In this document: positions 7,741-43,577 of the stretch, in pieces
How positions within the stretch are numbered: position 1 is the first letter of the stretch
Layout: every line of letters starts with the position of its first letter
Assembly: GCA_000993565.1 (NCBI GenBank)
Contig: LBWK01000001.1
Location: forward strand, 300,208-364,207
Reading direction: 5' to 3'
Origin: a candidate division WS6 bacterium GW2011_GWF2_39_15
Lineage (GTDB): Bacteria > Patescibacteriota > Dojkabacteria > SC72
DNA length: 64,000 nt
Made by a program: the position numbers and the translations under genes
Notes under the pieces: model-generated
The model's database searches: none
The model's input: the letters and a program-made list of their open reading frames with translations, nothing else
What the model was told of the DNA's origin: nothing

Positions 7741-9729
<1,989 letters not shown>

Positions 9730-9766
9730 CCTTTATATTCTTTCCTTACAGGCTTATAATCCCAGT

Positions 9767-10753: not shown

Positions 10754-10789
10754 CAATATAATGAGATATTAATTTGAAAATATCGCACG

Positions 10790-11617
10790 ATGATTAATCT
10801 TGAAAACGCTGTAAAATTCCCCTTTGAGGATAAAGACTGGCTCAAAACAGTCGGGGTATATTTTTTGATCAGTTTAGGACTTGCGATAATAACCTTTGTA
10901 CTTCAGACAACTTTTCAACTTCCTGCAGATATCTTTAATACAATAGCAAAAGAAACTGAGACTGAGTCCTTTAAATATCTTGCAACCAGTACAAACGCCA
11001 TTTCGGCTTTTTTCAATATGATTGTATCTTTGGTTACATTCCCGGTAACCTTGTACCTATCAGGTTATCTCTTTGATGTGGTAGGACATATCATGTATGG
11101 AAAGAAGCCCGAAATCACTCCGCATGGAAATATATGGCAGAGGGTAAAGTTTGGGATTGTGAAGGTGGTAATAGGATTTGTGCTTGGTATGACTTCTCTT
11201 CTGCTCCTTGGATTTCCCATACTTACAGGAGCAGCAGCTGCAATATCGATGGAAAGCATGATTGTAGTGAGCATCCTTTTATGGATTGCGACAGGAGTTC
11301 TTTTCCTTTTATGGCTTTTTACCTGCGTCATAATAGTAAAGTTTGCAATGTACAGCATGGAGTATTTGTATCTATCCGAAGGATTCAAAAATGTCTTTGT
11401 TCTTTCAAAAGTTTCGGCCCTCATTTCCAACAACTGGAAAAAGTATCTTCTCCTTCTTGGGCTTGAGATATTAGGGGCGATAGCAATCTCCCTCTCCTTT
11501 GTCACATGCTGTATGGCCTTCTTTGTATACCCGGCAGTAGCAACCGTTGTAGCATTTGCTTTGGCATACTGTTACGGCACTGTATACAAGGAGATATATA
11601 CCTCTTCTAGGGTTTAA
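10790..11617 (+). CDS. polytopic membrane protein, unknown function
   Basis: Multiple hydrophobic helices. Confidence 0.4.
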   Translation: MINLENAVKFPFEDKDWLKTVGVYFLISLGLAIITFVLQTTFQLPADIFNTIAKETETESFKYLATSTNAISAFFNMIVSLVTFPVTLYLSGYLFDVVGHIMYGKKPEITPHGNIWQRVKFGIVKVVIGFVLGMTSLLLLGFPILTGAAAAISMESMIVVSILLWIATGVLFLLWLFTCVIIVKFAMYSMEYLYLSEGFKNVFVLSKVSALISNNWKKYLLLLGLEILGAIAISLSFVTCCMAFFVYPAVATVVAFALAYCYGTVYKEIYTSSRV

Positions 11618-11680
11618 CAAAACCGCCTTTTTAGGGTATCATGGTTAGACAGGCAACGTATAATTTAGATACTACAAGTT

Positions 11681-22832: not shown

Positions 22833-22867
22833 AGCTGTAATTATACGAAATAATGTATAATTTAACC

Positions 22868-24037
22868 ATGAAAATACTTCTAGCTGTCCCAGAATATCCT
22901 CCACATCATATTGGAGGTGGTGGTGAAGTTTACAAACAGCTTGCAACAAACTATCAGCGATTAGGGCATGAGGTAACTGTTTTATATGGATATTATCCAA
23001 ATAGGGGATTAAATTCCAAAATTAAGAGCTACAAGAAAGATAATATAATCTTCTATGAGGTCCCGGAGCTACCATACCCTAAGTCGAAACCATTTCTCAG
23101 AACCGCAATGCCAGCTACCATGAAAGCAAAAAAAGAGCTTCAGGACATTATTAGTTCTGACATTTTTGATGTCGCACACCTTCACGGATATGGTTGGCCT
23201 TTAATAAACACAATTGCAGGGCTTTGTATGAAATTTAATATTCCTTATATTTACACATTACATGGATACCCTGAGAGCCAGAATTCTTCCCCAATTTTAA
23301 GACTTATATGGAATAACTTCATATTACCAACCCAAAATAGATCCCTAAGTCAAGCCCATTCACTAACGGCAATCTCCGACTATGTGGCAAAGGATCCAAG
23401 GAACACTCAACTTAGCAAGACTCATACAATATTCAACGGAATCAATTACAGTTCATTTAGAGAGATCGCAAATGAGGTAGATATAAAGACGGAAAACAAC
23501 ATTTCAGATGATGACTTATTCATATATTCAATAGGTAGGTTGGCAGAAATGAAAGGCTTCCAGAATATCGTTAAGTTGATACCTCAGATAAATAAGCAGG
23601 GAATGAAAGTAAAATACTTAATCGCCGGTGATGATGATGGATATATGAAAGAATTGGAAAAGCTAGTTTCAAACTTAAGGTTAGAGGATCAAGTTAAGCT
23701 TGTAGGTTTTCATGGTGATGATACTAAAAAAATGTTCATAAAACAGTGTAATATATACGCAGTTCCATCGTTATGGGAACCATTTGGTTTAACCGTTCTT
23801 GAAGGAATGGTATTTGAGAAACTGATACTAACAACCGAGGCCGGAGGGATTAAGGAAGTTTTGGAGGGATATAGCAACAAGATTAATATGGATGATAAAG
23901 ATCTGATAAATAAAATCATCAGTAGAAAGCAAAATAGAAGCGAAATGGATTGGAATAGATTTAATTGGGAAACAATATCCAAGAATTATCTTAGTCTTTT
24001 AGAAGAAGCCGCTATTCATACAAAGAGATTAGCCTGA
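22868..24037 (+). CDS. glycosyltransferase family 4 (GT-B, GT1/GT4)
   Basis: N-terminal HIGGGGEVY and C-terminal VPSLWEPFGLTVLEGM (an EX7E-type motif). Confidence 0.75.
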   Translation: MKILLAVPEYPPHHIGGGGEVYKQLATNYQRLGHEVTVLYGYYPNRGLNSKIKSYKKDNIIFYEVPELPYPKSKPFLRTAMPATMKAKKELQDIISSDIFDVAHLHGYGWPLINTIAGLCMKFNIPYIYTLHGYPESQNSSPILRLIWNNFILPTQNRSLSQAHSLTAISDYVAKDPRNTQLSKTHTIFNGINYSSFREIANEVDIKTENNISDDDLFIYSIGRLAEMKGFQNIVKLIPQINKQGMKVKYLIAGDDDGYMKELEKLVSNLRLEDQVKLVGFHGDDTKKMFIKQCNIYAVPSLWEPFGLTVLEGMVFEKLILTTEAGGIKEVLEGYSNKINMDDKDLINKIISRKQNRSEMDWNRFNWETISKNYLSLLEEAAIHTKRLA

Positions 24038-24828: not shown

Positions 24829-26469
24829 GTGAGATACTCTTCTTATATGAAAATCCTAACCTGGTTTAAATCACATTACTATATTATTCTTCCAATCCTT
24901 CTCCTCTCAGTAATCTCTTTAATGAATTTCCATTCCAATCAATTTATAATGGGATTGGATAATATATCTCCATACTTTAATTCAAGAGCAGTGCTAGATA
25001 AGCTATTTGGAAGTGAAACTGGTGCTGTATTCGCGAACCTCCCCTTTCTATTTACACTCCCTATATTTGAACTTCTTAAACTCATTTCAATTCCCATATG
25101 GGCAATCAATCAGCTGTATTTGATGTTCGGACTTTGGATGGGAGTATTAGGAACGGGATACCTCGTATACAGAATCACAAAGTCTAAAAAAGGCTTTCTG
25201 TTTGGATCAGTACTATCTTTGGCAAACCTTGCAACTTTCTGGATCTTTAATCAGCCTAACTACTTCTTTGTAGCCGCATTTGCATCTATACCATGGTTAA
25301 TGGAGTGGGGGATAGGAAAGCCAGAGAAAAACCTTGTCTTAACAATAATCAGGATCACCGCCGTTATACTATTCTTCCAGACGACAATGAATCTAGTGGT
25401 CTTCATCTCATACCTCTTTGCAATTCTTCTAATACAATTTGCTATAAACACTAGCAGAGTGGAATGGAAGAGTAATTTAATAACTCAGACAAAAAGGCTG
25501 GGAATTATTCTATTAATACTTTTAATTGTATGGCAAGCAGGAATATTTCTGACAGGAAAATCCGATTTTGTTGTTTCTAAATTAGTAACATACTACTCAA
25601 GTATCAAAGAGAACCCTCTAACAAAAGCCATTACTAAAGATCTTCAGGCATCAGGAATAATTAATAACAATATTGTCAATAATATTGTTTTCAAAAACTC
25701 ATGGGTTGAAACTCATACAACGGAGGGCATCAGACTATTTCAAAGCTATGATTACTACTCAGGTCCTATATTCCTAATTGGACTTATACCGTTCGTACTA
25801 GCCCTTTCGACCCTTTTCAATAGTGATCGACAAAAGAAAATTCCTTTACACTTTGCTCTCATAGTGGGACTCATACTAATGAGCAGTATTATGTTGAAGG
25901 CAACTCAAGGGGTACCAGTATTAAGTGAGGCTTTCAGGTGGAGTGCAAGTAAGTTCTGGCCCCTTATTATCTTTCCGATTATCCTCCTCGCTACAGACTC
26001 TCTAGTCACGTTAAAAAGGCCTTTGATAACCGGGATCGTCTTCGGTCTGCTCCTCATTTATATCCTCCCAATGTTTACGGGTAATCTCTTTTCCAAAGAA
26101 CTTGTAACAAAGCTACCTGGCGAGTATTTCAAACTGGATAACAATATTAAAAGTGAAACTCTCTATTACTATCTTCCTGCTCCTCAGGATCTATATTTTT
26201 ATACATACAAATTCGGATATTTTGGTTCCGATTTTGTTTCGTATATGACAAAAGGAGACACTCAAAAAACCGGGATTCTCTCATACTTCAATAATGTTGA
26301 GAGGTACAAGAGTATTAGTAAATCCCTCGTAAACTGTGAGTCGAAAATTGAGAATATTAAGATAATCTGGGATTCAAATGTAGAGACAGGGAGTAATATA
26401 ATTAAAAATTGTTTGGACAGCAAATATAATCTAACTTCAAAAGACAGGGGATTATATATATATGAGTAA
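24829..26469 (+). CDS. polytopic membrane protein, paralog of the N-terminal domain of the 19980..22832 product (GT-C-like candidate)
   Basis: Collinear similarity at the N-terminus (NISPYFNSRAVLDKLFG vs DIDYPINIGLEIKRSLY, etc.); at least 10 TM helices. Confidence 0.5.
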   Translation: MRYSSYMKILTWFKSHYYIILPILLLSVISLMNFHSNQFIMGLDNISPYFNSRAVLDKLFGSETGAVFANLPFLFTLPIFELLKLISIPIWAINQLYLMFGLWMGVLGTGYLVYRITKSKKGFLFGSVLSLANLATFWIFNQPNYFFVAAFASIPWLMEWGIGKPEKNLVLTIIRITAVILFFQTTMNLVVFISYLFAILLIQFAINTSRVEWKSNLITQTKRLGIILLILLIVWQAGIFLTGKSDFVVSKLVTYYSSIKENPLTKAITKDLQASGIINNNIVNNIVFKNSWVETHTTEGIRLFQSYDYYSGPIFLIGLIPFVLALSTLFNSDRQKKIPLHFALIVGLILMSSIMLKATQGVPVLSEAFRWSASKFWPLIIFPIILLATDSLVTLKRPLITGIVFGLLLIYILPMFTGNLFSKELVTKLPGEYFKLDNNIKSETLYYYLPAPQDLYFYTYKFGYFGSDFVSYMTKGDTQKTGILSYFNNVERYKSISKSLVNCESKIENIKIIWDSNVETGSNIIKNCLDSKYNLTSKDRGLYIYE

Positions 26470-28481: not shown

Positions 28482-29253
28482 TCTTCATACTATTTAAATT
28501 AGCTCTTGAATAATTATATCTGATTTTACTGAAACTCTTCTTTAACTGATACATCTTTAGCTTAGCAAGCTCCAAAGAAACCTCTTTAAAAGCCTTTCTG
28601 AAGTTCAGTTTGGACTCAGCTTTATATATCCATTTGATAGGGAACTCCCTTACTTTAAAACCATTAAACTTACTATCAATGAGTAAGTTTACATCAACCG
28701 TCCACTTATTGGCAACTAATATTTTCATCAGTTTCTTTGCTACATGTCTCTTCATTACCTTTACTGCACACTGAGTATCTGCAAACTTAAGTCCAAACAG
28801 AGTTCTTACTGCAACGTTAAACATTCTTGAAAGAACAAATCTGTAGACTGGCATATCACCGGATATTTCAGACTTTCTCATATATCTGCTACCCATTACC
28901 AGATCAAGCTCCGGATTCTTTTTAAGCATATTAAATCCTTTAACCAAGTCTTTTATTGAAGATGAACCGTCAGCATCCTGATATGCAACGTACTTTCCTT
29001 TACCAATTTTGACACCTCTGGCGATTGCACCACCTTTACCCGTATAACCCTTAATATTCATAACTTTTATGAATTCATAGCTCTTAGCTACCTCTTTGAC
29101 AACATCAACCGTATTGTCTGTGGAATTATTTACAACAACAATTACCTCACATTCAATACTGGACTTTGAGAAGTATTTCCCAAGTTCCATTAGAGTGGGT
29201 CTTATCCTCTTTTCTTCATTGTATGCCGGTATAATTACCGTTAAGTCTTTCAT
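28474..29253 (-). CDS. glycosyltransferase family 2 (dolichyl/polyprenyl-phosphate sugar transferase, DPM1-like)
   Basis: VIIPAYNEE...VVVNNSTDNT...DADGSS are GT2 DxD-type motifs. Confidence 0.8.
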   Translation of the reverse strand: MKDLTVIIPAYNEEKRIRPTLMELGKYFSKSSIECEVIVVVNNSTDNTVDVVKEVAKSYEFIKVMNIKGYTGKGGAIARGVKIGKGKYVAYQDADGSSSIKDLVKGFNMLKKNPELDLVMGSRYMRKSEISGDMPVYRFVLSRMFNVAVRTLFGLKFADTQCAVKVMKRHVAKKLMKILVANKWTVDVNLLIDSKFNGFKVREFPIKWIYKAESKLNFRKAFKEVSLELAKLKMYQLKKSFSKIRYNYSRANLNSMKND

Positions 29254-29414
29254 ATCATAAAGGCTTTATTTATACACTATATTATACCAAATTATCCCAT
29301 AGTATTCCATTCTCTATATTATAACCTTTGATAGGGGATTCTGAGTATTGACAACAATAATCATTCTGTTTACTATGGATAAGAAAGTAATTTATGGGAT
29401 ACTCATATAATTAA

Positions 29415-29906
29415 ATGGAACCTGCCCGACAAAATATCTCTCAGTTAATAGTAAATGATGATGTTACACAGACAAAGTTCAATCAATTTGCAAAGGAACT
29501 TCAGGATTTAGGAGCATCAGAGAAAGAGATTAAAGAGATAGCCATGGGAGTTGCAAAGACTGCATCTAATCAGACGACAGCAAAAATCAGCCTTTTAATG
29601 GACGATAGCGACTGGAGTAAATGGAAAGCCTTTGTAGATTCAACTCCAACACCAAATGTTGCACAACAACTCATTATCATGAACAAATTCCTTGAAGATA
29701 GGACAGGCAAGAGCCTAGAGACATTGCATCTTGAAATTCTTGATTCATTACTTAAAGATACTCTTGATCAGATTCAAAAGAGAAGGGATATGGCTATTAA
29801 AGTATCCAAACTTTCTGACGAACAGATAGATACCGTTAATGAAGCTCTTGATAATGAGGAGTTTGATAAAGCTGATGATATATTAAATTCTACAAGTACT
29901 AATTAA
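29415..29906 (+). CDS. small acidic helical protein preceding the giant protein gene (1-nt spacer)
   Basis: ORF; predicted all-helical and acidic; no family recognised. Confidence 0.4.
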   Translation: MEPARQNISQLIVNDDVTQTKFNQFAKELQDLGASEKEIKEIAMGVAKTASNQTTAKISLLMDDSDWSKWKAFVDSTPTPNVAQQLIIMNKFLEDRTGKSLETLHLEILDSLLKDTLDQIQKRRDMAIKVSKLSDEQIDTVNEALDNEEFDKADDILNSTSTN

Positions 29907-29907
29907 A

Positions 29908-32900
29908 ATGGGACTTAACGCCGGTGGTATGCAAGAAATACATCCTGATATCCAGTCAGATAGAGAGTTAATAACCTCTGGTAAAGTTCCTCAGGGAACT
30001 GCTGAAGCTAATGACAAATTAAATACTCCAGTAGTAGATATTACAAAGACAACTGGTTATTATGGGAATGATTTAACAACCGATCCTCTCCCGCTTACTG
30101 CTGAAGCGACAGCAAAGATACTTAGAAGAGGTCCTGCACAAAATGAAGATAATGGAGAAACAGGCTTGAAAGCCGGCGAGGAAAGACCTAAAACTCAATC
30201 TGCTATTCCTGTAGCCAACGGATCAGCTTATGTCGAATCAGTTAGTCCTTCAACCCCTGCACAGCAGACACCAGACACCGAAGGACTTGATCAACTTAAT
30301 ACCCCCTTATATACGCTTACTGGAGGAGGAGAGACCACTTCGACTAATGTAACTACGCCAAATGCAACAGAAGGTAAAGCAGGTAAAAACGGTACTGATA
30401 CATCAGATGACTTAGTAGCAAAGCTAAGATCAATGTTGTCCCAGGCTGACAAAGATAAGCCTAAAGAACACACTATAGAAACACCTGTAGCCCAGGATCT
30501 CAATCAGGCAGTTACAGCTTTGGCTGCAGAAGTTGCTAAGGAACCTGAAAATAATTCAAAGAAGGAAGAGTTGAACGGCTTAAAGGAATTAAGTCAATCT
30601 GTAACGAACCTCTCACAACAGATAAACCAGGTGAAAATAGAAATCACAAATCAAGTTAATACTCAGGTTGCCCAAATTACTGCAAAGATGGAAGAATCTA
30701 AAGATAAGCTGGCAGGAACGGTAAACCACTATTATATGCAAGGGGGCTCAGTATTTCACGGGACAGTAGGAGCAGGTACACATATAGAAGTTACAAATAC
30801 GGCAAGTAATTTTAATACAGGAGCAGCAGGAATAAGCGTTAGAAATACAGCAGACCACGGAAGTACAATAAACAATGGCAATATTGTAGATGCAGGTGTT
30901 AATCTGGGTATACTAGATTTGAATGCAATGATGGAAGAAGCTGAAAATTTGGACAGGCTTGCAGACGAACCAGAAGCGCCAACTTCTCTAAGTGAGGCGG
31001 CAAGGGACACAGCCGATAAGGCGAGAGAGCTTACAGAGGATATAAAGACAAGAAAAACTGATCGAGTAACAGATCCGGCAGTTACACCTGATTCAAGTTC
31101 AACAACTCATCCACCCGTAATAAAACCTCAACCAAATGTAACACCGAACGATAATCCTCCTACACCTCCACAACCGGCAGTAGCAGTAACAGATGACAGT
31201 AGTGAGCATAAAGACACCGGAGTAACCCCAGAAGAGCAACCTACTTCCGATCCTAAGAAAGCAGCAGAGAATCTAGTAGGGCCATTGACTCCTGAAGAGT
31301 CACAGGAATTTGATAATGCGAATGAAAAGAAAGGTTTTCTCTTCAGCATAAAGAGAATGTTCAGCGGTGAAAACTGGAAGAGATGGGTACCAACAGTGAT
31401 AGGGTCGATCGCAGGTTCATTCGGGGTAAAACTGTTTGCAGGAGCAGCTCTATCAATGGGTCCAATTGGAACCGCATTACTCGGAGGTGCAATGGCTGGT
31501 TTTGCCATATATTCAGGATATAGAGCTATCAAGAACTTAAGTGAGGCAGCCAAGGCGGAAGGTAAATCTGTATGGCAGGTAATGGGCAACTTGGATTTTG
31601 TAAAAGGAGCCTTACTTGGAGGATTAATTTCTGGGGTAGGTAAAGCTTCAGCGAAGTTTATCCCTGGATTCGGTTCGCTTATGGCACTTGGACTTGAAGG
31701 AGGAACTTCGTGGCTATTTGAAAATCACCTTAACAAGAAACAGCAGGAATTAGTTAACAAATACATGGATACATACCAGGCACGCAGGTATGCAAATCTT
31801 AAGGATAAAGGATATGTCATTAGAGGTGCTGAAGGAGCACCTGCTGTAGGAATGGAATCCATACTTAAAGATATGACAAGTGCACCTTCAGAATCAGAAA
31901 AGAAGGTAGCAAAGAGAGCTGCACTTGCTTCCCTTATACATCTCTACAGCATAACTAAGGATGATGCCCATAAATTTGTTGAGTATACGATAAAGGAGAA
32001 CGGTGTCGATAAGGTGATTAAGGTTGATATTACACAAATTGCGATTGATGAAGCAGAAGGAAGTACAGAGAAATACAGAATGCTTCAACTTAAAGATACT
32101 GACAAGATTAATGTCGAGAAATTTATAGATACATTAGATACAGCCAAACTTACATCAGCGATTCAAGATGCATGGAACAAAACCGATGCAACTAAGAGGG
32201 CTGATATGGCTAAGGATCTTGTAAACCTCTTCGTTGGCTTGGAAGGCACAGAAGTAGAGAAGATTATGTCGGAAGAGAGAAAGAGCTATCTCTCATGGAT
32301 CAACTTCACAACTGGGTTACACTTTGGTATGGCGGCAGTAAATGTTGGATCCTCTCTTGCAGGAGCTTACGGAGCATTCAGAGACAATTTTGGTGTCAAT
32401 CATGATGCACAGGGAGTAAACACCTCAGATTCTCAACAAGCAACAGAAGATTATAGAAGTGCCCATCCAGAAGCCCCGCAGGCAGAAGTAGAGAGGGTAG
32501 TAAATGCTGAAGGCCACATAATTGATAAGGTAGATGTAGACGGAGGCGGCGTAGACTACTACGTCGACCAAACTACAAACCAATATGTTGTACTTTCTGG
32601 GACCGGTGCTGAAAGCGTATTTGAAATACAACACCCGGATCTTGGACAGGTAACCGCAACTGAAGTAACTACCCACGGAGATACAGGCATTGTTGCCACT
32701 TTGAGTGATAATGCAGGAAAAGTTGTTGGTGTAACATATGCCGACTCTACTGGACACATTGGAGTTTTGGATATGAACGGCGTAGGTCAGCATCTATTTG
32801 CAGGTGGAGGAGAGAGCCCAATACACGGAGTAACTCTCACTGATATACAGCCAAATGGTGATGCAACATTAGTTTTAGACAATGTAAACCATCAAGTAAA

Positions 32901-35259
32901 TCTAGGAAATCTTAACCTTGAACTTGACGGATCATCAACATCAGAGGTTCAGACACAGATTGGTGTATTGATGCCACAGAGTGGAGATTCAGTAAATAGT
33001 ATGCTTCACCATACAATTGAACAGGCTAAAACTCTGAATCCTAATTTGCAACAATATGACAATCTGGAACTTGAGAGAATGCTTTACCAGGAAGGAAGTG
33101 GTATCCATGCTAATGACGCCGCGATAAGGCAGGAGTTAGGTATCAGGGGAGCACTTGATGTATCAGAGGAATGGAGCTGGAAAGATTCACCTACAATTAT
33201 GTCCTGGCTAACGGAGCTTAACGGTGGGAATACTGTGGAACTAGGTTCACAGACAGTTACAGGCGGAACACCTGGTGTAAACACTTTCTTTGAAGGGCCG
33301 GAAGTTTCCGCATTTGACGTTGCAAATGCAGGATCTGCACCTGGAGAATCAGGTGGCTTTATCAGTGTAATGGATAGAATCGTAGAGCCATCACTTCTTG
33401 CTTTGGTAGGTGGTGTGATGGCAGGTGTATTTGCTTCACAACCTAAGAGTGGCGGTATTTCAAGGCAGAACGATGTAAATACCGCAACGGCAAAAGCCGG
33501 TGATGATAAGACAAAAGATGACAAAGGCAAGGGAGTAAGCAAAGAAACCTCAGTTGAATTAGCAGCAGGAGAAGGAGCTGTTGAAAAGAAAGTCGGAGGG
33601 CCAAAGGATGTAATCGTAAATCAGATACTTAAGAACGTTATACCTAATAAATATGTTGAGATAGCTGGAAAGAAATATATTCAGGTAGAGAGTGCACCTG
33701 GGCAATGGAAAGAAAAAGATGTTAAAGACGCCCAGCCTATATCAGCTGAAGACCTTGCAGATCTACTCTTGAATCAAACGGATAAGAATCTAAGAAGTAA
33801 AGATCTATCTGGAATACTTAATAGTGCGGCCATCAAAGGTGGGGCAACTATAAAATTAACGGAGGAAGATGGTTCTGAGACAACATATAAGAAGTCCGTA
33901 AAAGACAATGAACCAGGAAAGAGGCCTGTCAAATTAGTATCATGGATTAACACAGAGACAAAGAAGAGTAGCGATGTTCTAACTAGCGATGCACTTGCGA
34001 CCAAGATCCTTGATTTGAAGGAAAAGACAGTTACAGTATCAACGCCATCTGGAAGTCCACAAGGAGGACCAAGTGCTGAAGCTGGTGGAGACGAAACAAA
34101 GAAAGAGGGTGAGGTAGATAAGGAAAAAGCTCTGAAAGAAACTTTAAACAATATATTAGAAACTCTTCATATTGATAAAAAGCAAGTTGTTATTAATGGT
34201 GAAAAATACGAATATAACAAGGATGCCAAAATATGGATAAAGTCAGGTGCATTGTTCAACAAGAATCTAATTCAGAAAGGCTCTGATAATCTTAGTGACC
34301 AGCAAGTTGTTGAATCCTGGATTAAACTTGAGTCAAAACAGCTTGGGAAGGATTTGGAAACAACTCTTGGGAACGTCGACAGTGGGAAAAAGATAAATGT
34401 TATTGACGAAATATTTAGTAAGACACCGACCTCAGTATTGAAACAAGCAAATTACAATGGCGATGTTTATACTTATGATTCAGAAAAAGATGTATGGAAT
34501 AAGGATAAAAAGAGTAAAACGGCAAGTCCAAAGAGTATCACAGGATCTGGAATGACAACCTATATAGCGAATGGTACGGCCAACGCACTCCCAAGCAAAA
34601 AAGAAAATCTGATTTGGAAATCAGATACCAGAGCTTTTAATGACAAAGATTTGGCATTAGAAATTGCAAAACTGAGGGTAAGCACTAAGGAAGTAAAGTC
34701 TGAAACAAAATCCGCAGACAGTAATGCAGAAGGGGAAAAGAACAAGGAAGAAAAAGAGAAGAAAGAAAGTAAGGGCAGAAAACTCCTTAAGACAGCGCTT
34801 ATAGTATTAGCCGTAGCAGGAGGTATTACCTCATATGCAGTTGGTGGTTGGCAAGTAGCAGCAATTACATCAGGCATCAGCTGGTTGACGACACTTGGTC
34901 TAAATATCGGAGAAGGTTTGGCACAAAAAGGTATAAGCAAGAGACAAGCCGAAGCCGCTGAACTAGCAGAAAAGCTTAAAAACGAGAAACGAGCACTGAA
35001 GCCTGATGAAGAAAAGTCGTTGGAGGAAAGGAAGAGGAAGGACGAAAGGGCTAGAAATATTATTTATTGGCTCAAATTTGCCAGTAAAGTCACGGGTGCC
35101 CTATCAATATCATCTGGAGCTTCTGCACTGTTAGGTTTAGTGATTGATAAGTTCCAGATTAACATAAAAGGAATAATCGGAGGTGCTTTCAATAGACCAG
35201 AGATAAACCAAGTTCCTTTTGAACAAACAATAGACGAATCACTTAACTTAGGAAAGTAA
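29908..35259 (+). CDS. giant (1783 aa) membrane-anchored protein with low-complexity regions, Gly-rich TM segments and a 55-aa module shared with the 35741..37288 product
   Basis: Continuous ORF. TM-like segments at about aa 490-540, 560-600 and 1640-1720. Shared module at aa 275-330 (YYMQGGSVFHGTVGAGTHIEVTNTASNFNTGAAGISVRNTADHGSTINNGNI). Degenerate G-x-Y-x-Y...W-x-K repeats at about aa 1200-1500. Confidence 0.6.
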   Translation: MGLNAGGMQEIHPDIQSDRELITSGKVPQGTAEANDKLNTPVVDITKTTGYYGNDLTTDPLPLTAEATAKILRRGPAQNEDNGETGLKAGEERPKTQSAIPVANGSAYVESVSPSTPAQQTPDTEGLDQLNTPLYTLTGGGETTSTNVTTPNATEGKAGKNGTDTSDDLVAKLRSMLSQADKDKPKEHTIETPVAQDLNQAVTALAAEVAKEPENNSKKEELNGLKELSQSVTNLSQQINQVKIEITNQVNTQVAQITAKMEESKDKLAGTVNHYYMQGGSVFHGTVGAGTHIEVTNTASNFNTGAAGISVRNTADHGSTINNGNIVDAGVNLGILDLNAMMEEAENLDRLADEPEAPTSLSEAARDTADKARELTEDIKTRKTDRVTDPAVTPDSSSTTHPPVIKPQPNVTPNDNPPTPPQPAVAVTDDSSEHKDTGVTPEEQPTSDPKKAAENLVGPLTPEESQEFDNANEKKGFLFSIKRMFSGENWKRWVPTVIGSIAGSFGVKLFAGAALSMGPIGTALLGGAMAGFAIYSGYRAIKNLSEAAKAEGKSVWQVMGNLDFVKGALLGGLISGVGKASAKFIPGFGSLMALGLEGGTSWLFENHLNKKQQELVNKYMDTYQARRYANLKDKGYVIRGAEGAPAVGMESILKDMTSAPSESEKKVAKRAALASLIHLYSITKDDAHKFVEYTIKENGVDKVIKVDITQIAIDEAEGSTEKYRMLQLKDTDKINVEKFIDTLDTAKLTSAIQDAWNKTDATKRADMAKDLVNLFVGLEGTEVEKIMSEERKSYLSWINFTTGLHFGMAAVNVGSSLAGAYGAFRDNFGVNHDAQGVNTSDSQQATEDYRSAHPEAPQAEVERVVNAEGHIIDKVDVDGGGVDYYVDQTTNQYVVLSGTGAESVFEIQHPDLGQVTATEVTTHGDTGIVATLSDNAGKVVGVTYADSTGHIGVLDMNGVGQHLFAGGGESPIHGVTLTDIQPNGDATLVLDNVNHQVNLGNLNLELDGSSTSEVQTQIGVLMPQSGDSVNSMLHHTIEQAKTLNPNLQQYDNLELERMLYQEGSGIHANDAAIRQELGIRGALDVSEEWSWKDSPTIMSWLTELNGGNTVELGSQTVTGGTPGVNTFFEGPEVSAFDVANAGSAPGESGGFISVMDRIVEPSLLALVGGVMAGVFASQPKSGGISRQNDVNTATAKAGDDKTKDDKGKGVSKETSVELAAGEGAVEKKVGGPKDVIVNQILKNVIPNKYVEIAGKKYIQVESAPGQWKEKDVKDAQPISAEDLADLLLNQTDKNLRSKDLSGILNSAAIKGGATIKLTEEDGSETTYKKSVKDNEPGKRPVKLVSWINTETKKSSDVLTSDALATKILDLKEKTVTVSTPSGSPQGGPSAEAGGDETKKEGEVDKEKALKETLNNILETLHIDKKQVVINGEKYEYNKDAKIWIKSGALFNKNLIQKGSDNLSDQQVVESWIKLESKQLGKDLETTLGNVDSGKKINVIDEIFSKTPTSVLKQANYNGDVYTYDSEKDVWNKDKKSKTASPKSITGSGMTTYIANGTANALPSKKENLIWKSDTRAFNDKDLALEIAKLRVSTKEVKSETKSADSNAEGEKNKEEKEKKESKGRKLLKTALIVLAVAGGITSYAVGGWQVAAITSGISWLTTLGLNIGEGLAQKGISKRQAEAAELAEKLKNEKRALKPDEEKSLEERKRKDERARNIIYWLKFASKVTGALSISSGASALLGLVIDKFQINIKGIIGGAFNRPEINQVPFEQTIDESLNLGK
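30730..30887 (+). repeat. copy A of a ~158-bp inverted repeat (in-frame, inside the giant gene)
   Basis: About 90% nucleotide identity to the reverse complement of 37091-37246. Confidence 0.8.
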
Positions 35260-35285
35260 AAATTAAACTATAAAAGACTTGAGAT

Positions 35286-35729
35286 ATGGTAGAGGAAATT
35301 GCAAAACTAATAGATCAGTTAAAAACTTACGGCCTTGATAATGCAAAACTATCAGCTCTATACCAGTTGGCAGTAGAAGATTTTCTTGAGGAGGTTCAAA
35401 CAGACCTAACAGAAATCTCCGATAGTGACCTAACCGACATAGAGTCATCACTTAAAGACATAACCATTGATAGCTTAGCAGAAGGTAATAATGATCCTTT
35501 CATGACGACTTTACGAAAACTATATGGAGCTCAAGCAGAACCGAGATTCTTGAAATTCCTTAAGGAATACTTTGAAGATGCTGTTAAGCAAGCCCAATCA
35601 GCAAAAGAGCTACTAGAGAAATATAAAGCTAATGATCCTGAAGTTCTAAAGAAGTTAGAGGAAGCAAAAATGAACGAGGATTATGATACGATGGAGGCTA
35701 TTATCAAGAGCCTTAATCCTGGAGAATAG
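35286..35729 (+). CDS. small acidic helical protein following the giant protein gene
   Basis: ORF; pI acidic; no family recognised. Confidence 0.4.
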   Translation: MVEEIAKLIDQLKTYGLDNAKLSALYQLAVEDFLEEVQTDLTEISDSDLTDIESSLKDITIDSLAEGNNDPFMTTLRKLYGAQAEPRFLKFLKEYFEDAVKQAQSAKELLEKYKANDPEVLKKLEEAKMNEDYDTMEAIIKSLNPGE

Positions 35730-35740
35730 TCTTAAAAGAG

Positions 35741-37288
35741 TTATTCTCTAACCCTTACAAACTCACTTTGTGATACAAAATGTATCCCGGTATCTGCTTG
35801 AAACACCTTTCTTCCTTCTTCAAACCACTTACCTTCAGGTGGATTGATCGAAGTCAGAATACCCAAGTATACAAAAGCTAAAAGCTGACATCCTGCCGGA
35901 GATTTATCAAACTTCTGCAACTTTGTATTTACTTTTGCTTTCTGTAATTCATTAAGTTCATCAGTTTCAAGAGGGGAGAGAAGATTGAATGAGCCTTTTT
36001 CTTCAATCATTATTCTAAATACTGAATTGAACTGCATATTCATATTACTAGCCAACCAATGTATTTTTTCTGAAGGTGTAAAATCGTCCCTCCAACCATC
36101 TGGGATTCTATCTTTTCGGATACCACCTTCCATTGGATCCACATAGTGAATTACATATCCTCCAAAGGCTTCATCTTTCACAGGAGTACTCAATATCGCA
36201 CGCGCATGTCCGCCAATATGACGATCCTGGGAAGAATAGTAGATACCAACCGGAATTCCCCATCTGTCTCCAAGCTTTGCCATATCAGTTACATTTATCT
36301 CAGTCTCTCTATTGGCATAGCTATCTAGACGGGGAACATCATCCTGTGCTCTTGGCCAGACATCATGATCAGGAAGTTCATCCGTTGTAATGTGGAATTC
36401 GGCTGGCCTACCAGGTTCCCTTGTTTCATGAACGTTTAGGTCATCGATATAAGGAGGTACAAAACCATGCAAAAGGTACTCTCTAACATCGGAACCTTTC
36501 TGGGACAAGATTTTCCTGAACATATCTTCAAGATAATTCGCAACGGTCAGGTTCCTATTTACCCAATGCTGAACCAGTGAGGCATCCATAATGGGTTCCT
36601 CAAGTAGAACAGCTGGAACCTCAACCATTAACCGGCTATGATCTTCCTGCTCTCGGATTATTAGGATAAATAAAGGGTTTTCTTTAGTATCAGAATCCAG
36701 TTCATCTTCTTTTGTCACAACAATATCAACGACGTCTTCATCCTCTTTTGTTTCAATATCAGGGTAAATACTAACCATGTCTTCAAGGTTTTCACCTAAG
36801 GCTTCAGTGAGTTGCATTTGATTTTTTACAATTTGTATTTGGTCATCAATGCTATCTATTTCCTCGCTTATGTCTAAATCTCCGTGATCTGTACTCGTAT
36901 GTGGAGCTGTTTCTTCTCCTTTTGGTCGCAGCGGCTCATCAGATTTTGAAGGAATTGTGGATACCGGAGTTGCACTGTCTACTTTCTGAGGTTCTGGGGT
37001 TGAGGTCTTCTTTTCTGTATCATCAAAGGTAGCAGCTTCTTCCATTGTAGTATCCTGTGTCAAAGTTTTCAGACTAGTCTTTGTGACGGCAATATTGCCA
37101 TTGTTTATTGTGCTTCCATGGTCTGCTGTATTTCTAACGCCTATTCCGACTGCTCCTGTATTGAAATTACTTGCCATATTTGTAACTTCTATATGGGAAT
37201 CTGATCCTACTGTTCCGTGAAATACTGAGCCCCCATGCATATAATATTCATTTGAAGATTCAACACTTTTCTTCCTTTGACCATTCAT
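35741..37288 (-). CDS. 515-aa protein with the shared N-terminal module (aa 15-70) and an unrelated C-terminal body
   Basis: N-terminal YYMHGGSVFHGTVGSDSHIEVTNMASNFNTGAVGIGVRNTADHGSTINNGNI, followed by an acidic linker and a ~300-aa C-terminal domain. Confidence 0.5.
   Translation of the reverse strand: MNGQRKKSVESSNEYYMHGGSVFHGTVGSDSHIEVTNMASNFNTGAVGIGVRNTADHGSTINNGNIAVTKTSLKTLTQDTTMEEAATFDDTEKKTSTPEPQKVDSATPVSTIPSKSDEPLRPKGEETAPHTSTDHGDLDISEEIDSIDDQIQIVKNQMQLTEALGENLEDMVSIYPDIETKEDEDVVDIVVTKEDELDSDTKENPLFILIIREQEDHSRLMVEVPAVLLEEPIMDASLVQHWVNRNLTVANYLEDMFRKILSQKGSDVREYLLHGFVPPYIDDLNVHETREPGRPAEFHITTDELPDHDVWPRAQDDVPRLDSYANRETEINVTDMAKLGDRWGIPVGIYYSSQDRHIGGHARAILSTPVKDEAFGGYVIHYVDPMEGGIRKDRIPDGWRDDFTPSEKIHWLASNMNMQFNSVFRIMIEEKGSFNLLSPLETDELNELQKAKVNTKLQKFDKSPAGCQLLAFVYLGILTSINPPEGKWFEEGRKVFQADTGIHFVSQSEFVRVRE
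37091..37246 (-). repeat. copy B of the ~158-bp inverted repeat (in-frame, 5' end of the 515-aa gene)
   Basis: Reverse complement aligns to 30730-30887 with ~13 mismatches across ~156-158 nt. Confidence 0.8.
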
Positions 37289-37333: not shown

Positions 37334-38644
37334 TTATTTCAGCGGATGCTTCTCCTTATGCGTCTCCTGTGCATACTTATCTGATGCATGCACATATCTT
37401 GTTGTTGTATTGAGACTTTCATGACCAAGCAATACCTGTATAGCAGCAGGACTCGCACCATTTTCAGCCAAATATGTTGCAAAACCATGCCTTAAACTAT
37501 GTGCAGAAGTAGGGACTAAAATGCCTAATCTACGCCTATAATTAGCAATACACTCCTGAAAATAGTTTGTAGATAATCGCGCATTTACATGTTTAGCCCT
37601 AGTCCCGCGAAGCGGAGTAAACAGGGCAGGGGAGTCAAACTTATCCAAGTATCTTGATTTCCTATATTCCTCAATGGTTTTCACATACCTCCACCTATCG
37701 TTTGCATCACTTATGAGATCAACAATATCCTTATTATCCTCAGATGTTTCACGATCAAGTATAAAAGCATGTCTCAGCCTTATCTCTAAATATCTATCCA
37801 ACCAATCCATTGCCCGGTCAGTCATATAAACGAACCTCTCTTTCTTTCCTTTACCCTTTATAAACAGCTTCCCGTCAAGGTTTATCTGATCCAGATTGAG
37901 ATTAATAAGCTCCGAGATACGCATACCAGTTGAAAAAAGCAACTCCATCATTGCACGATTACGCACTCCGACATCATGATCGTGCTCAAACTCAACCGGT
38001 GACTCAATCAGTCTAACTAAATCTTCCAACTCAGCCACCTGTGATTTCTTCTTGTCCGCCTTAATTAATTTAATTGCATCAGGAGGAATTGGAACCTCCA
38101 AATCTCTATCAATTCTGAATTTCAAATAACTTCTGATTGCACTCAACATACGATTGACGCTTCGGGCATCCAAACCGGTATCAGATCGACTGGAGACATT
38201 GGCAGGCTTACCGTGTACCCCAAGACTTCCGAACACCTTGCGATATACATCCTCGAGAAATTTTCCTTTAAACTCGGTACTTTCCGTCTCACTCACAGGT
38301 CTCAATACAGTACCCTCAGGCACTTCGACGGTTCTAGACCCCTTGTAGCCCTTTGAGGTATCTTCCTGTGCTGTATCAACCTTTCTTAAGTATTTCTCCC
38401 TTATTTTATCCAAATCCTTCAAATGATCACCATTTCTAAGGTAGCCCTTGTACAAAGTCACCTGTTCTTTATTCAACTTCTCAAAGGAATACGAATTAGC
38501 ATCAAGAAACACTGCAAAAATTGAAAGATCCCGTGCGTAATTAAGTACTGTCTGCATACTATAATTGTTATTCTGAAGCTCTAAAAGAAAGGAGTCCTGA
38601 TCAGGAAGCTTCGGAATTACTGTGTTCATATTTTTAGAAGACAT
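37334..38644 (-). CDS. tyrosine site-specific recombinase (XerC/XerD-like integrase family) with a ~100-aa insertion
   Basis: C-terminal catalytic region AHSLRHGFATYLAENGASPAAIQVLLGHESLNTTTRYVHA (H-x-x-R ... Y) and an N-terminal core-binding-like helix NYARDLSIFAVFL; 436 aa against ~300 for canonical Xer. Confidence 0.8.
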   Translation of the reverse strand: MSSKNMNTVIPKLPDQDSFLLELQNNNYSMQTVLNYARDLSIFAVFLDANSYSFEKLNKEQVTLYKGYLRNGDHLKDLDKIREKYLRKVDTAQEDTSKGYKGSRTVEVPEGTVLRPVSETESTEFKGKFLEDVYRKVFGSLGVHGKPANVSSRSDTGLDARSVNRMLSAIRSYLKFRIDRDLEVPIPPDAIKLIKADKKKSQVAELEDLVRLIESPVEFEHDHDVGVRNRAMMELLFSTGMRISELINLNLDQINLDGKLFIKGKGKKERFVYMTDRAMDWLDRYLEIRLRHAFILDRETSEDNKDIVDLISDANDRWRYVKTIEEYRKSRYLDKFDSPALFTPLRGTRAKHVNARLSTNYFQECIANYRRRLGILVPTSAHSLRHGFATYLAENGASPAAIQVLLGHESLNTTTRYVHASDKYAQETHKEKHPLK

Positions 38645-39082: not shown

Positions 39083-39898
39083 TTAAGAATAATAAATTCC
39101 CAAAATAAACGTAAGGACTAATAGAAACACGTATTGGATCAGATCAAAGTTCCTAACCATATTACGCTGTTTCTTGGTTATGTACTCTAGAGAGATGAAC
39201 CCCCCTACTGTTGGCCCCAAAGCTATAACCTCGTGCCTTTGTGAAACAATCGCCAGTGCTATCACAGAGGTAGAAAGGAAAAGTAACGTTAGAGCGGTAT
39301 ATCCCCCTATCCTCTCCCAGCTTATGTCCATATGCCTTAAGTGGAAAAAGATAAGACCCGTGTAAGTAAGCAACAGAATAGCCATGGTAATAAAGATATT
39401 AAAATTGGCATCCATTATCCCAACAGTTATAAAGAAGGTGCATATAAGAGTTCCAATAAATGAAACCGTTCTTGCCGCCTGAACGAGGGGAATTTCTTTC
39501 TTGATTGTTGAAACGTTAAATATATTAGCCATCAAAAATGACATATATATACCGCCAAACAGAATTGCCAAGATACCAATGAGAATAAGAACTTCATAAA
39601 CCCTACCCACCCTTCTGAAGAAGAAGAGCTCAAGAAAGATCATTTCTGCAAAAATAAAAAGACTCGTCTGCGGAACAATGTATAGAAGAGTGTGTAGCGT
39701 AACCTGGAACCTAAGTGCCCATATTAATCCAATATATGAAAAGATAAAGTACCCTACTCCTCTCAAAATAATCGTGACAGGATTAACAATAACAGATTGC
39801 TGTGTGATTTTAAAAAATAATATGGAGAGTGAGATAACTAATGCAAGAGTCAAGATTCTACCTTTTTTTACATTGTCTATGTTTCCCTGTATTTCCAT
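39083..39898 (-). CDS. polytopic membrane protein, unknown function
   Basis: About 8 hydrophobic helices. Confidence 0.4.
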   Translation of the reverse strand: MEIQGNIDNVKKGRILTLALVISLSILFFKITQQSVIVNPVTIILRGVGYFIFSYIGLIWALRFQVTLHTLLYIVPQTSLFIFAEMIFLELFFFRRVGRVYEVLILIGILAILFGGIYMSFLMANIFNVSTIKKEIPLVQAARTVSFIGTLICTFFITVGIMDANFNIFITMAILLLTYTGLIFFHLRHMDISWERIGGYTALTLLFLSTSVIALAIVSQRHEVIALGPTVGGFISLEYITKKQRNMVRNFDLIQYVFLLVLTFILGIYYS

Positions 39899-43058: not shown

Positions 43059-43577
43059 ATGAAAAGGAAGAAAGAGACTACACTTGAGACTCTTGATAGG
43101 AAACTGGACGAGATCTCGGAGAGATTAAAAGACCATGACAGCAGGTTTATATCTATAGACAAAAGGTTTGATAGTGTAGACAATCAATTCATCAGCATAG
43201 CTAAAAAATTTGATAGTATCGACAATCAATTTATCAGCATAGATAAAAGGCTTGACAGTTTCGATAAACAATTCGCTAACATAGACAAAAGGTTTAATAT
43301 AGTGAATAAAAGATTTGATTTAGTAAACGGAAAACTTATAAAAATAGCTCGGGAGCAAACCTCAAACTCCATGTCTCTGTTCTCATTGGGCGACAAGATT
43401 AATAATCTTGAAAGTCTTTACGAAACAGTTAATGATAAACTTGATACATCAATGATTATCTCAAATAAGCTTTTCGCTGAATATTCACAGAAGATTGAAG
43501 TACTGGATTATAAAGTCAATGAAATAAGTCTAAAACTTGCTGACAAGGAGACTAATCAAAAGTACAAGAAAAAATAG
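43059..43577 (+). CDS. small coiled-coil protein built from ~9 near-perfect heptads (hDxxFxS)
   Basis: IDKRFDS/VDNQFIS/IAKKFDS/IDNQFIS/IDKRLDS/FDKQFAN/IDKRFNI/VNKRFDL, i.e. 21-nt tandem repeats at about 43150-43340. Confidence 0.45.
   Translation: MKRKKETTLETLDRKLDEISERLKDHDSRFISIDKRFDSVDNQFISIAKKFDSIDNQFISIDKRLDSFDKQFANIDKRFNIVNKRFDLVNGKLIKIAREQTSNSMSLFSLGDKINNLESLYETVNDKLDTSMIISNKLFAEYSQKIEVLDYKVNEISLKLADKETNQKYKKK

Follow-up and report, generated by a model that had tools for sequence, protein, structure and literature searches.

A giant polytopic membrane protein flanked by two small acidic proteins in a putative, apparently Dojkabacteria-specific operon

Introduction

The described systems closest to the locus reported here are the invertible loci of the R64 shufflon and of the mollicutes Mycoplasma and Ureaplasma, the Rhs/CDI loci, the small helpers of type III and type VIIb secretion, and the Wzz/Wzc polysaccharide co-polymerases. 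In the reduced genome of Ureaplasma, the inversion of surface genes is driven by a Xer-type recombinase (PMC3599477), and the recoding of proteins by inversion is a widespread phenomenon (PMC10028968). The locus analyzed here lies in a 64-kb stretch of the genome of candidate division WS6 (Dojkabacteria) GW2011_GWF2_39_15, called the window below, and shares individual traits with each of these systems. We know of no cultivated member of the Dojkabacteria, which are ultra-small bacteria of groundwater, and to our knowledge neither the building of their envelope nor their cell contact is understood. Large lineage-specific hypothetical membrane proteins are common in CPR genomes. An earlier note on the window had singled out one of them as a suspected host-attachment or effector protein, placed between two small proteins in a putative invertible locus.

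Results

Organization and integrity of the three-gene locus

Three open reading frames of 163, 1783 and 147 codons follow each other on the forward strand, as had been described: p163 (29415..29906), the giant gene (UT34_C0001G0333, 29908..35259) and p147 (35286..35729). The stop codon of p163 is separated from the ATG of the giant gene by 1 nt (TAAAATG), in agreement with the earlier note, while the distance from the giant stop codon to the ATG of p147 is 26 nt and not 27 nt. A candidate sigma-70-like promoter (TTGACA-17-TACTAT, 29348..29376, forward strand) precedes p163, within a divergent intergenic region of 161 nt; it is a consensus match only (10 of 12 positions), and sites of this kind were not enriched over shuffled sequences.

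All three reading frames, the giant included, were found identical and intact on seven independent contigs of this organism, obtained from several sources (ENA, Logan) and up to 721 kb in length, the longest on record being 869 kb. The order p163-giant-p147 was the same on every one of them, and two copies compared over 24-25 kb were 100% identical to the window. The uninterrupted frame in independent assemblies, together with homologues of like length and architecture in other genomes, refutes the idea that the giant gene is a pseudogene, a gene-call artefact or an assembly chimera. The 5.35-kb frame is open in a genome of 39% GC and purifying selection is seen in the invariant core residues; no point in favour of an artefact was found, and its probability is practically negligible.

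A family with a conserved core and a fixed genomic position

An exhaustive HMMER scan of 1.84 billion representative proteins (E <= 0.001) gave 14 matches, 12 of which are large homologues of 825-2028 aa. These have in common a core corresponding to aa ~465-1190 of the giant (24-37% identity), and vary in their N- and C-termini. The family can be defined by this core with its 30-odd invariant residues, by p163 upstream, and by a position between a glycosyltransferase (GT) cluster and xer-ruv; the window locus has all three.

Synteny was compared over ten related loci, almost all of which carry the label Dojkabacteria (nine distinct ones after collapsing L010 and L014). Wherever the contig allows, the order is GT genes, p163, giant, (p147), a convergent xer, p271 and ruvBAC. 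Directly upstream lie GT2, GT4 and GT4-GT2 fusion genes together with genes for polytopic proteins of at least 10 TM segments. The giant gene is present as a single copy in this fixed synteny, and appears from these comparisons to be vertically inherited. Its core is only about 35% identical to those of relatives, against 64-70% for RuvB. Because the synteny of the whole region is conserved, having GT genes or xer as neighbours may say nothing about function. The three genes probably form an operon, apparently specific to Dojkabacteria, that closes a cluster for cell-envelope glycosylation.

Segments of the giant protein

The conserved core of the family (aa 462-1195, 31291..33492, forward strand) consists, in order, of an amphipathic helix, four Gly-zipper TM segments, a predicted cytoplasmic alpha/beta domain, TM5, a predicted extracytoplasmic domain and TM6. 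It is preceded by a variable N-terminal arm (aa 1-461, 29908..31290, forward strand), which is not conserved in the family and is made of a Thr/Gly/Pro-rich part, a coiled-coil-like part, a repeat module and a Pro-rich linker. A low-complexity N-terminus of ~270 aa had been claimed: this is right for the first 200 aa, rich in Thr, Gly, Ala and Pro, while aa 201-275 resemble a coiled coil more than low-complexity sequence. After the core, a Lys-rich arm predicted to be cytoplasmic (aa 1178-1625, 33439..34782, forward strand) leads to a C-terminal Gly-zipper module (aa 1626-1748, 34783..35151, forward strand) composed of a TM pair, a charged helix and a last TM segment.

The Lys-rich arm holds the hairpin motifs G-x-x-Y-x-Y...W-x-K, which the earlier note had read as degenerate repeats. 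Two of the three copies quoted there fit a strict pattern, GEKYEYNKDAKIWIK (aa 1431) and GDVYTYDSEKDVWNK (aa 1518), and the third is looser. By shuffling, 0.001 strict matches were expected where 2 were observed, and none of 5000 shuffles reached 2. There are just two to three Y-x-Y...W motifs in the giant, spaced about 90-190 aa apart, and the motifs have positional equivalents in homologues.

Charge-based topology

Hydropathy and the positive-inside rule, the charge pattern being taken over 12 family members, were the sole basis of the topology. No signal peptide was found, as previously noted: the first hydrophobic stretch (aa 324-341) is weak, and the first stretch of TM grade starts at aa 493. 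The two Gly-zipper hairpins (together aa 493-600, 31384..31707, forward strand) were located at aa 493-538 and 565-600, and the C-terminal TM pair at aa 1626-1667. Three more TM-like segments (aa 797-822, 1158-1177 and 1727-1748) had escaped the earlier note. TM3 and TM4 of the giant are weakly hydrophobic. The family means of K+R in the flanks are 5.8 before TM1 and 6.0 in the TM2-3 loop, fall to 0.9 after TM5 and 0.5 before TM6, and rise again to 3.0 after TM6 and 5.6-7.1 around TM7-9. The TM segments and this charge pattern bear out that the giant is a genuine membrane protein and give an N-in, roughly 9-TM topology. It places the first ~490 aa, the domain at aa 600-796 and the last ~450 aa in the cytoplasm, and only aa ~823-1157 (~335 aa, 19%) would be outside. 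In all, some 70% of the giant is predicted to be cytoplasmic. In homologue P0015 a GT2 domain of cytoplasmic type is fused after TM6, which agrees with a cytoplasmic location of this side.

The sole predicted extracytoplasmic domain (aa 823-1157, 32374..33378, forward strand) is beta-rich with a helical part and carries a conserved DxDxDG-like loop, in which D876, D878 and D883 are invariant. Fold comparison of this domain gave no match. Its alignment to an approximate LysM sequence had an hhalign probability of 0.4%; there was no Pfam match to FG-GAP/VCBS, the only related match being CRTAC1 at E 0.29. The AF2 model of the core was mediocre (mean pLDDT 62, pTM 0.32, from a 9-sequence alignment). 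The whole giant had no match in Pfam, NCBIfam, PHROG, PADLOC, PDB sequences or PDB folds, and on this comparison its family appears to fit no known kind.

The small flanking proteins

Both flanking proteins are acidic, as had been stated, with a pI of 4.53 for p163 and 4.35 for p147; their ratios of D+E to K+R are 30/19 and 33/17, and each has only 3-4 Pro/Gly. Both genes are kept beside homologues of the giant. Homologues of p163 (40-47% identity), the conserved partner gene directly 5′ of the giant, lie immediately upstream in 6/6 informative loci with a gap of 18-24 nt, and homologues of p147 (28-38% identity), the conserved partner gene directly 3′, start 2-5 nt past the giant stop codon in six loci. 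Presence of p147 follows the C-terminal Gly-zipper TM module: it was found in 7/7 loci with this module (window counted) and in 0/2 without it, among nine loci that are phylogenetically non-independent. No gene replaces p147 in the loci with other giant C-termini. As the presence of p147 goes with a single defined part of the giant, it is reasonable to read the small proteins as dedicated partners. p163 had no family or PDB match, and neither small protein matched a WXG100, LXG, Lap or chaperone family.

Of the two roles that had been suggested for these proteins, chaperone or immunity partner, the notion of a dedicated partner stands. An immunity function is not supported: no toxin domain was found in the giant, and its gene is single-copy, syntenic and vertically inherited.

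An inverted repeat shared with a strain-specific gene

Convergent with p147 lies p515 (35741..37288, reverse strand), a gene for a lineage-specific, acidic 515-aa ORFan protein. The N-terminus of p515 (aa 15-67) is a paralogue of a module in the cytoplasmic arm of the giant; beyond this short patch its sequence is unrelated. At the DNA level the patch is a sharp-edged inverted repeat of 164 nt, in frame in both genes, with one arm in the giant (aa ~272-326, YYMQGGSVFHGTVG...NNGNIV, 30723..30886, forward strand) and the other in p515 (aa ~13-66, 37090..37253, reverse strand). The arms are 6203 nt apart and 90% identical, with 16 differing positions and a longest exact run of 22 nt. No other inverted repeat of at least 35 nt was detected in the window. 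The dS is 0.22 in the core of the module against saturated flanks, and dN/dS is about 0.3, which indicates that the copies in the giant and in p515 are both under protein-level constraint. Because the repeat is in frame in two convergent genes, both chimeras predicted from an inversion (775 and 1523 aa) stay open.

The next gene, 45 nt upstream of p515, encodes a Xer-like tyrosine recombinase of 436 aa (37334..38644, reverse strand) with Pfam matches to Phage_integrase (2.3e-33) and Phage_int_SAM_1 (3e-09). Its best NCBIfam matches, XerC and XerD, reach 177 bits against cut-offs of 330-335, and its two domains are set apart by an insertion of ~80 aa. The recombinase was found at the same place, downstream of ruvB-p271 and convergent with the giant or p147, in eight related loci (seven distinct), all without repeats. 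p515, the module and any comparable repeat were absent from the related loci L005-L016. The adjacency of the recombinase therefore appears to be ancestral synteny, its position being the same in every related locus that is long enough; p515 and the shared module appear unique to this genome.

The inverted-form junction gave no match in metagenome contigs, which are consensus assemblies and insensitive to minority orientations. None of the nine possible single-crossover giantN-p515C proteins occurred among 15 billion proteins, in which native p515 was present. Every long contig showed the same orientation. In other samples, the contigs that match the window at 100% identity all break off at giant codons 255-259, immediately ahead of the homology. 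The putative invertible locus of the earlier note is real as an inverted repeat and unsupported as an inversion.

Discussion

The locus is best described as an uncharacterised lineage-specific membrane-scaffold operon, switching being possible but unsupported. We give about an even chance to the reading in which p163-giant-p147 is a vertically inherited operon and the giant an N-in, roughly 9-TM scaffold with dedicated partners. The giant would be an inner-membrane scaffold anchored by its two Gly-zipper (GxxxG) hairpins and by the third, C-terminal Gly-zipper module. The domain with the DxDxDG-like loop would face the cell wall or the exterior, and its variable arms, about 1250 aa with disordered, coiled-coil and Lys-rich repeat parts, would remain in the cytoplasm. 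p163 and p147 would be dedicated cytoplasmic partners of holdase or adaptor type, p163 serving the conserved part or the N-terminal arm and p147 the C-terminal TM module. Such a protein may span the envelope as a tether or organiser and link factors in the cytoplasm with the cell surface, for envelope-glycan assembly or at a contact zone, rather than as a secreted adhesin or toxin. Its function is a guess, as the giant has no homology to any characterised protein. p515 would have arisen recently in this strain by copying a ~55-aa module of the cytoplasmic arm, and would most likely dock to the same partner as the giant; the inverted repeat would be a by-product of this copying and not a proven switch.

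A shufflon-like switch is rather unlikely. Here a Xer-like recombinase, or homologous recombination, would invert the 6.2-kb segment between the repeats and replace the giant past aa ~326 (core, C-terminal arm, p147 along) by the C-terminal 449 aa of p515, which are soluble and acidic, so that two alternative proteins share a constant expression site with p163 and the N-terminal arm. The sharp edges and low dS of the repeat, the recombinase next to it and the clustering of contig ends just upstream suit a switch better than passive duplication. Also in its favour, the repeat is the sole long inverted one in 64 kb, both chimeras stay open and the recombinase looks active. However, the recombinase is inherited by relatives that have no repeat, the 16 differences leave short exact runs while active invertible repeats are usually near-identical, and the inverted junction and chimeras were absent, although minority forms escape consensus assemblies. 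Moreover, the exchange would remove the conserved core of the family and keep its least conserved part, an odd design. We consider it unlikely that a reversible flip by the chromosomal Xer-type recombinase or by repeat recombination brings about whole-core protein switching in this patescibacterium. It is equally unlikely that its products are a 1783-aa envelope-spanning scaffold or a 775-aa soluble acidic protein made from one promoter, p163 and a ~270-aa arm, and no likelier that the contig ends at codons 255-259 are its population footprint. If true, the inversion would be a first case of programmed switching between proteins in the CPR bacteria.

The remaining explanations concern the giant itself. 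It might sit at the surface of an episymbiont as a host-attachment or effector protein, p163 being its secretion chaperone and p147 an immunity protein or chaperone. Its large size, fast evolution and lineage-specific occurrence fit this; the variable termini, the one conserved extracytoplasmic domain with its Ca-binding-like loop, and the size and pI of the small partners also fit. But the predicted topology, with about 70% of the giant in the cytoplasm, speaks against both an adhesin of the classical type and a secreted effector, and the variable arms, the would-be business end, are predicted on the cytoplasmic side. A signal peptide, a cell-wall anchor, adhesin repeats and toxin domains were not found in the giant, its locus is present once and inherited vertically, and p147 tracks a TM module and not an enzymatic C-terminus. 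The attachment role proposed in the earlier note is thus not upheld and is quite unlikely. It is very unlikely that the giant is a channel or translocon subunit whose Gly-zipper hairpins oligomerise into a pore, like VirB6/TrbL or a holin; a VirD4/TraD-like ATPase 8 kb away might then be its partner for DNA or macromolecule transfer. Its three Gly-zipper modules, a weak match of the TM hairpin of homologue P0011 to holin superfamily III (E 0.004, below threshold) and the conserved DUF8128/TrwB-like ATPase in the same syntenic block point this way. Yet no TrbL/VirB6, holin or other transporter family matched at threshold and no fold similarity to VirB6/TrbL or holins was found, seven genes (xer, p271, ruvBAC, yebC and a 172-aa ORF) lie between the giant and the ATPase, which is on the opposite strand, and no other T4SS parts were seen. 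If the locus were polymorphic-toxin-like, the giant would serve as a scaffold for delivery whose C-termini can be exchanged, p147 would be the immunity gene and p515 an orphan C-terminal cassette; the C-termini indeed vary, p147 co-varies with their type, and p515 has unrelated sequence after its short patch of homology. Against this, no Rhs/YD, LXG, VENN, PT-HINT or toxin domain was present (no delivery or toxin domain matched in Pfam, NCBIfam or PADLOC for the giant, p515 and six homologues), the patch precedes the core instead of marking a core/toxin junction, the cassette is inverted and not tandem, each genome has one copy in fixed synteny, and the module that p147 tracks is a membrane anchor, not an enzyme. 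This reading is highly improbable, and that p515 keeps its patch for recombination has just as slight a chance.

The analysis defines a single-copy, class-conserved three-gene module to which no curated family and no solved fold is related, and provides it with a testable topology and a partner map. With the default view of a giant surface adhesin removed, the module becomes a concrete target for work on CPR cell architecture.

Comparison with known systems

The inversion systems (R64 shufflon/Rci; Mycoplasma/Ureaplasma Xer-type, PMC3599477; PMC10028968) resemble the locus in the in-frame inverted repeats within opposed genes, the adjoining tyrosine recombinase and the reduced genome, where a Xer-type enzyme could double as invertase. 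Here, however, the recombinase is an ancestral syntenic gene found also in related loci without repeats, the arms are just 90% identical, there is a single cassette, the second orientation was not found in any assembly, and the conserved core, not a variable tip, would be removed. Rhs/CDI loci, as generally described, likewise combine C-termini that vary with a small gene downstream that co-varies and a gene fragment close by that shares a short patch of homology; they differ from this locus, which has no delivery or toxin domains, an inverted cassette, a patch upstream of the core and single-copy vertical inheritance. T3SS chaperones and the Lap/DUF3130-type helpers of LXG toxins in T7SSb are comparable in size (147-163 aa) and pI (~4.4), in adjoining and being translationally coupled (putatively so here) to a very large client, and in that one partner tracks one client region. 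The client here is instead a polytopic membrane protein and not a secreted one, and neither T3SS/T7SS components nor a helper family match were found; for T7SS/WXG100 there was no WXG100 or LXG match, only the FtsK/VirD4-like ATPase 8 kb off beyond the ruv operon. Compared with the Wzz/Wzc polysaccharide co-polymerases, again as generally known, the giant has no Wzz family match and carries seven further TM segments and ~1250 cytoplasmic residues, but it shares with them the arrangement TM5, aa 823-1157, TM6 in a glycosyltransferase cluster, and one of its homologues is itself fused to a GT2 domain.

Results

In the groundwater bacterium GW2011_GWF2_39_15 (candidate division WS6, Dojkabacteria), the ORF listing places on the forward strand the genes for a small protein, p163 (29415-29906), a 1783-aa membrane protein, here called giant (29908-35259), and a second small protein, p147 (35286-35729). 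All three ORFs, described in an earlier note from sequence inspection, were present and intact. Seven contigs from ENA and Logan assemblies, up to 721 kb in length, carry an identical giant in the same arrangement each time, and two retrieved copies matched the window at 100% across 24-25 kb. These data refute a pseudogene or an assembly chimera, and render an artefact extremely improbable. The proposed spacing of 1 nt upstream of giant was correct, the p163 stop codon and the giant ATG forming the junction TAAAATG, but the downstream gap is 26 nt and not 27. We infer that the three genes form one operon with translational coupling, its promoter possibly corresponding to a promoter-like site at 29348-29376. 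As had been noted, p163 and p147 are both acidic (pI 4.53 and 4.35, respectively), and both contain little Pro and Gly.

Scans covering one genome per GTDB species and the JGI metagenomes retrieved 10 related loci, 9 of them distinct. The taxon labels on the 7 genome records, on which the taxon counts rest since metagenome contigs carry no label, are Dojkabacteria for six and Saccharibacteria for one bin. Gene order was constant wherever the contig reached: p163, giant and, in some loci, p147 are preceded by polytopic membrane proteins together with glycosyltransferases, in many cases a GT4-GT2 fusion, and are faced convergently by a Xer-like recombinase, p271 (a membrane protein of 271 aa), ruvB, ruvA, ruvC, yebC and a VirD4-like ATPase. 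All 6/6 informative loci have a p163 homologue (40-47% identity) 18-24 nt upstream of giant, and six loci have a p147 homologue (28-38% identity) 2-5 nt downstream. The p163-giant-p147 unit is intact, class-conserved and tightly spaced, and it sits at the end of an envelope glycosylation cluster. In the informative loci p163 was always present beside giant. p147 tracked the C-terminal Gly-zipper TM module of giant: the only two loci that lack it are those in which giant is devoid of this module (7 with, 2 without, the window included and the loci not being phylogenetically independent). Neither small protein family showed a detectable relation to solved proteins. Their C-terminal helices share a D-[YF]-E-x-A likeness by eye only, and a paralogous origin was rejected (hhalign probability 1.7%).

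Several neighbouring features were recorded in the window. Two large ORFs at 19980-23000 (−; 1006 aa, or 950 aa in the public annotation) and 24829-26469 (+; 546 aa) encode polytopic proteins with at least 10 TM-like segments and no family match; interleaved with GT4, GT1 and GT2 genes, they form part of an envelope-glycan cluster. The polytopic p271 (39083-39898, −), also devoid of a family match, lies between ruvB and the recombinase in all related loci reaching there, and in this lineage it seems to belong to the ruv operon. A 172-aa coiled-coil ORF (43059-43577, +), flanked by yebC and the VirD4-like ATPase gene, carries four tandem 42-nt (14-aa) units at 43155-43322 with 62-100% identity. 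The adjacent 840-aa protein (43582-46104, −), with a DUF8128 match and a weak match to TrwB/VirD4/TraD-type coupling-protein ATPases, is kept in the syntenic block of all related loci (823-829 aa). Further away, gyrB and gyrA (7807-14461, +) are split by genes for a GH3-family glycoside hydrolase and a DUF4013 membrane protein, and a 92-nt direct repeat (849-940 and 3815-3906; 78% identity, copies 2966 nt apart) brackets a 625-aa minus-strand ORF (2107-3984). No RNA element was found in the 27-40 kb segment of the window.

Relatives of giant were detected only by an exhaustive HMMER scan of aa 484-1683 against 1.84 billion representatives, which matched 14 proteins, 12 of them large homologues (825-2028 aa, 24-37% identity). 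Word-indexed protein searches with giant, the core alignment or p515, a convergent 515-aa ORFan, returned self or nothing, apparently because low-complexity words swamped them. The homologues share a core (aa ~465-1190) with ~30 invariant residues, and differ in the first ~460 aa and in everything past ~1200. In one homologue, P0015 (825 aa), the extracytoplasmic domain and TM6 are joined to a C-terminal GT2 glycosyltransferase domain; P0006, P0009 and P0010 carry other large C-terminal regions that match no family. No match to giant, p163, p147 or p515 reached threshold in Pfam, NCBIfam, PHROGs or PADLOC, and single-sequence and profile searches of PDB sequences gave no significant match. Viral contigs contained no relatives of the giant family or p515, and a phage or mobile origin was therefore rejected. 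Literature searches found nothing on the giant protein or on this genome locus.

As the earlier note had stated, giant has no signal peptide, an N-terminal hydrophobic segment being absent. The Gly-zipper hairpins (aa 493-538 and 565-600) and the C-terminal TM pair (1626-1667) were also confirmed, but three TM-like segments (797-822, 1158-1177 and 1727-1748) had been missed. Two of the three quoted Y-x-Y...W-x-K repeats fit the strict pattern (2 observed against 0.001 expected in shuffles) and the third does not; these motifs have positional equivalents in the homologues. Across 12 family members, the flanks preceding TM1, separating TM2 from TM3, following TM6 and surrounding TM7-9 contain 3-7 Lys/Arg, as against 0.5-0.9 in those following TM5 and preceding TM6. 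On this distribution giant is predicted to be N-in, polytopic and mostly cytoplasmic, with aa ~823-1157 (~335 aa, 19%) as its only extracytoplasmic part. The GT2 domain following TM6 in P0015 fits a cytoplasmic location there. AlphaFold2 modeling from a 9-sequence alignment yielded a mean pLDDT of 62, reaching 70-85 in two regions, a cytoplasmic alpha/beta domain and an extracytoplasmic beta-rich plus helical domain. The latter displays an invariant DxDxDG-like loop; its membership of FG-GAP, VCBS or LysM could not be shown, and LysM was rejected.

The single long inverted repeat of the 64-kb window has opposed arms at 30723-30886 and 37090-37253 (164 nt, 90% identity), which differ at 16 positions with a longest exact run of 22 nt. 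Both arms encode in frame the same ~55-aa module, at aa ~272-326 of giant and at the N-terminus of p515. The repeat edges are sharp, a collinear 13-nt island of identity follows at 30931-30943, and the repeat core has a dS of 0.22 and a dN of 0.07 while the flanks are saturated. In giant, the module is enclosed by a 25-nt direct repeat (30681-30705 and 30924-30948), whose copies are 84% identical and encode KMEES and MMEEA; the second of them shares with p515 the collinear exact block ATGGAAGAAGCTG (30931-30943 versus 37033-37045). The module may be an insertion into giant; alternatively, the duplication may span ~258 nt instead of 164 nt. The C-terminal part of p515 (aa ~180-515; 35741-36750, −) reads GGHARAIL, YVIHYV, ~88 aa, SPAGCQLL and a hydrophobic helix. 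Its His...His...Cys order resembles that of permuted NlpC/P60-LRAT thiol enzymes, an assignment rejected as being without HMM support. The Xer-like tyrosine recombinase gene (37334-38644, −) ends 45 nt before p515. The enzyme scores far below the XerC/XerD equivalog cut-offs, and an ~80-aa insertion separates its SAM-like domain from its catalytic domain; homologues in all related loci are of comparable length (454-476 aa where complete).

Three short contigs from other samples (L019, L020 and L021; ERZ28563687, JGI 3300025111 and ERZ27254768) were 100% identical to the window within positions 29177-30684. Their ends all fall in a 12-nt interval, 30672-30684, in giant codons 255-259, and two of them begin at the same base, 29262. 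The ends are thereby 40-55 nt short of the repeat core, at the very point where the homology to the p515 start codon sets in. These ends point to population heterogeneity starting at codons 255-259, and suggest that p163 and the first ~259 aa of giant form a block common to co-occurring strains, which would diverge or be rearranged from a point just ahead of the module.

Discussion

The earlier note had placed giant in a putative invertible locus. The inverted repeat is indeed present, and together with a convergent gene and a recombinase it reproduces the layout of an inversion system that swaps 3′ ends; Xer-type enzymes drive such inversion in Ureaplasma (PMC3599477), and recoding of proteins by inversion is common (PMC10028968). 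However, the related loci that reach the recombinase all have it at the same place, with giant or p147 directly adjoining it, and contain neither p515, the module nor a comparable inverted repeat. We therefore take the position of the recombinase next to this locus to be inherited synteny, and p515 to be a strain-specific insertion. The mismatches between the arms also argue against switching. The inverted form was not encountered: long contigs showed one orientation without exception, no inversion-specific junction pattern was seen in metagenome contigs, and all 9 single-crossover proteins joining the N-terminal part of giant to the C-terminal part of p515 were absent from a 15-billion-protein collection in which native p515 is present. 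The clustered short-contig ends are not counted as a sign of flipping because an inversion should have its breakpoint beyond the repeat, whereas these ends precede it. An invertible switch is unlikely, and switching of the whole core by inversion, which would be a really surprising reading of the locus, is more doubtful still.

That giant is a membrane scaffold of the predicted architecture is, in our judgement, evenly poised; that it spans the envelope as a scaffold or tether serving envelope or contact-zone organisation is our preferred, though tentative, functional guess. The Gly-zipper hairpins would anchor giant and probably also mediate its oligomerisation. Its one domain on the outside would touch the wall or surface, and the long variable cytoplasmic arms would recruit other factors. 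p163 and p147 could act as dedicated holdase or adaptor partners, and p515 might dock through its copied module. An adhesin or effector accompanied by a chaperone and an immunity protein seems improbable, a pore or translocon slightly more so, and a polymorphic-toxin-like locus has a very slim chance.

The giant family fits no known kind, and only in this respect is it new. The module comes from an uncultivated class; it is clearly delimited and conserved and lends itself to testing. However, CPR genomes commonly encode large hypothetical membrane proteins that are lineage-specific. The locus resembles shufflons and Xer-driven inversion loci in repeat layout only, and p163 and p147 resemble the small partners of chaperone-client pairs in size, charge and adjacency only. 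Likewise, giant is similar to Wzz-type proteins only in the order TM, outside domain, TM within a glycan cluster.
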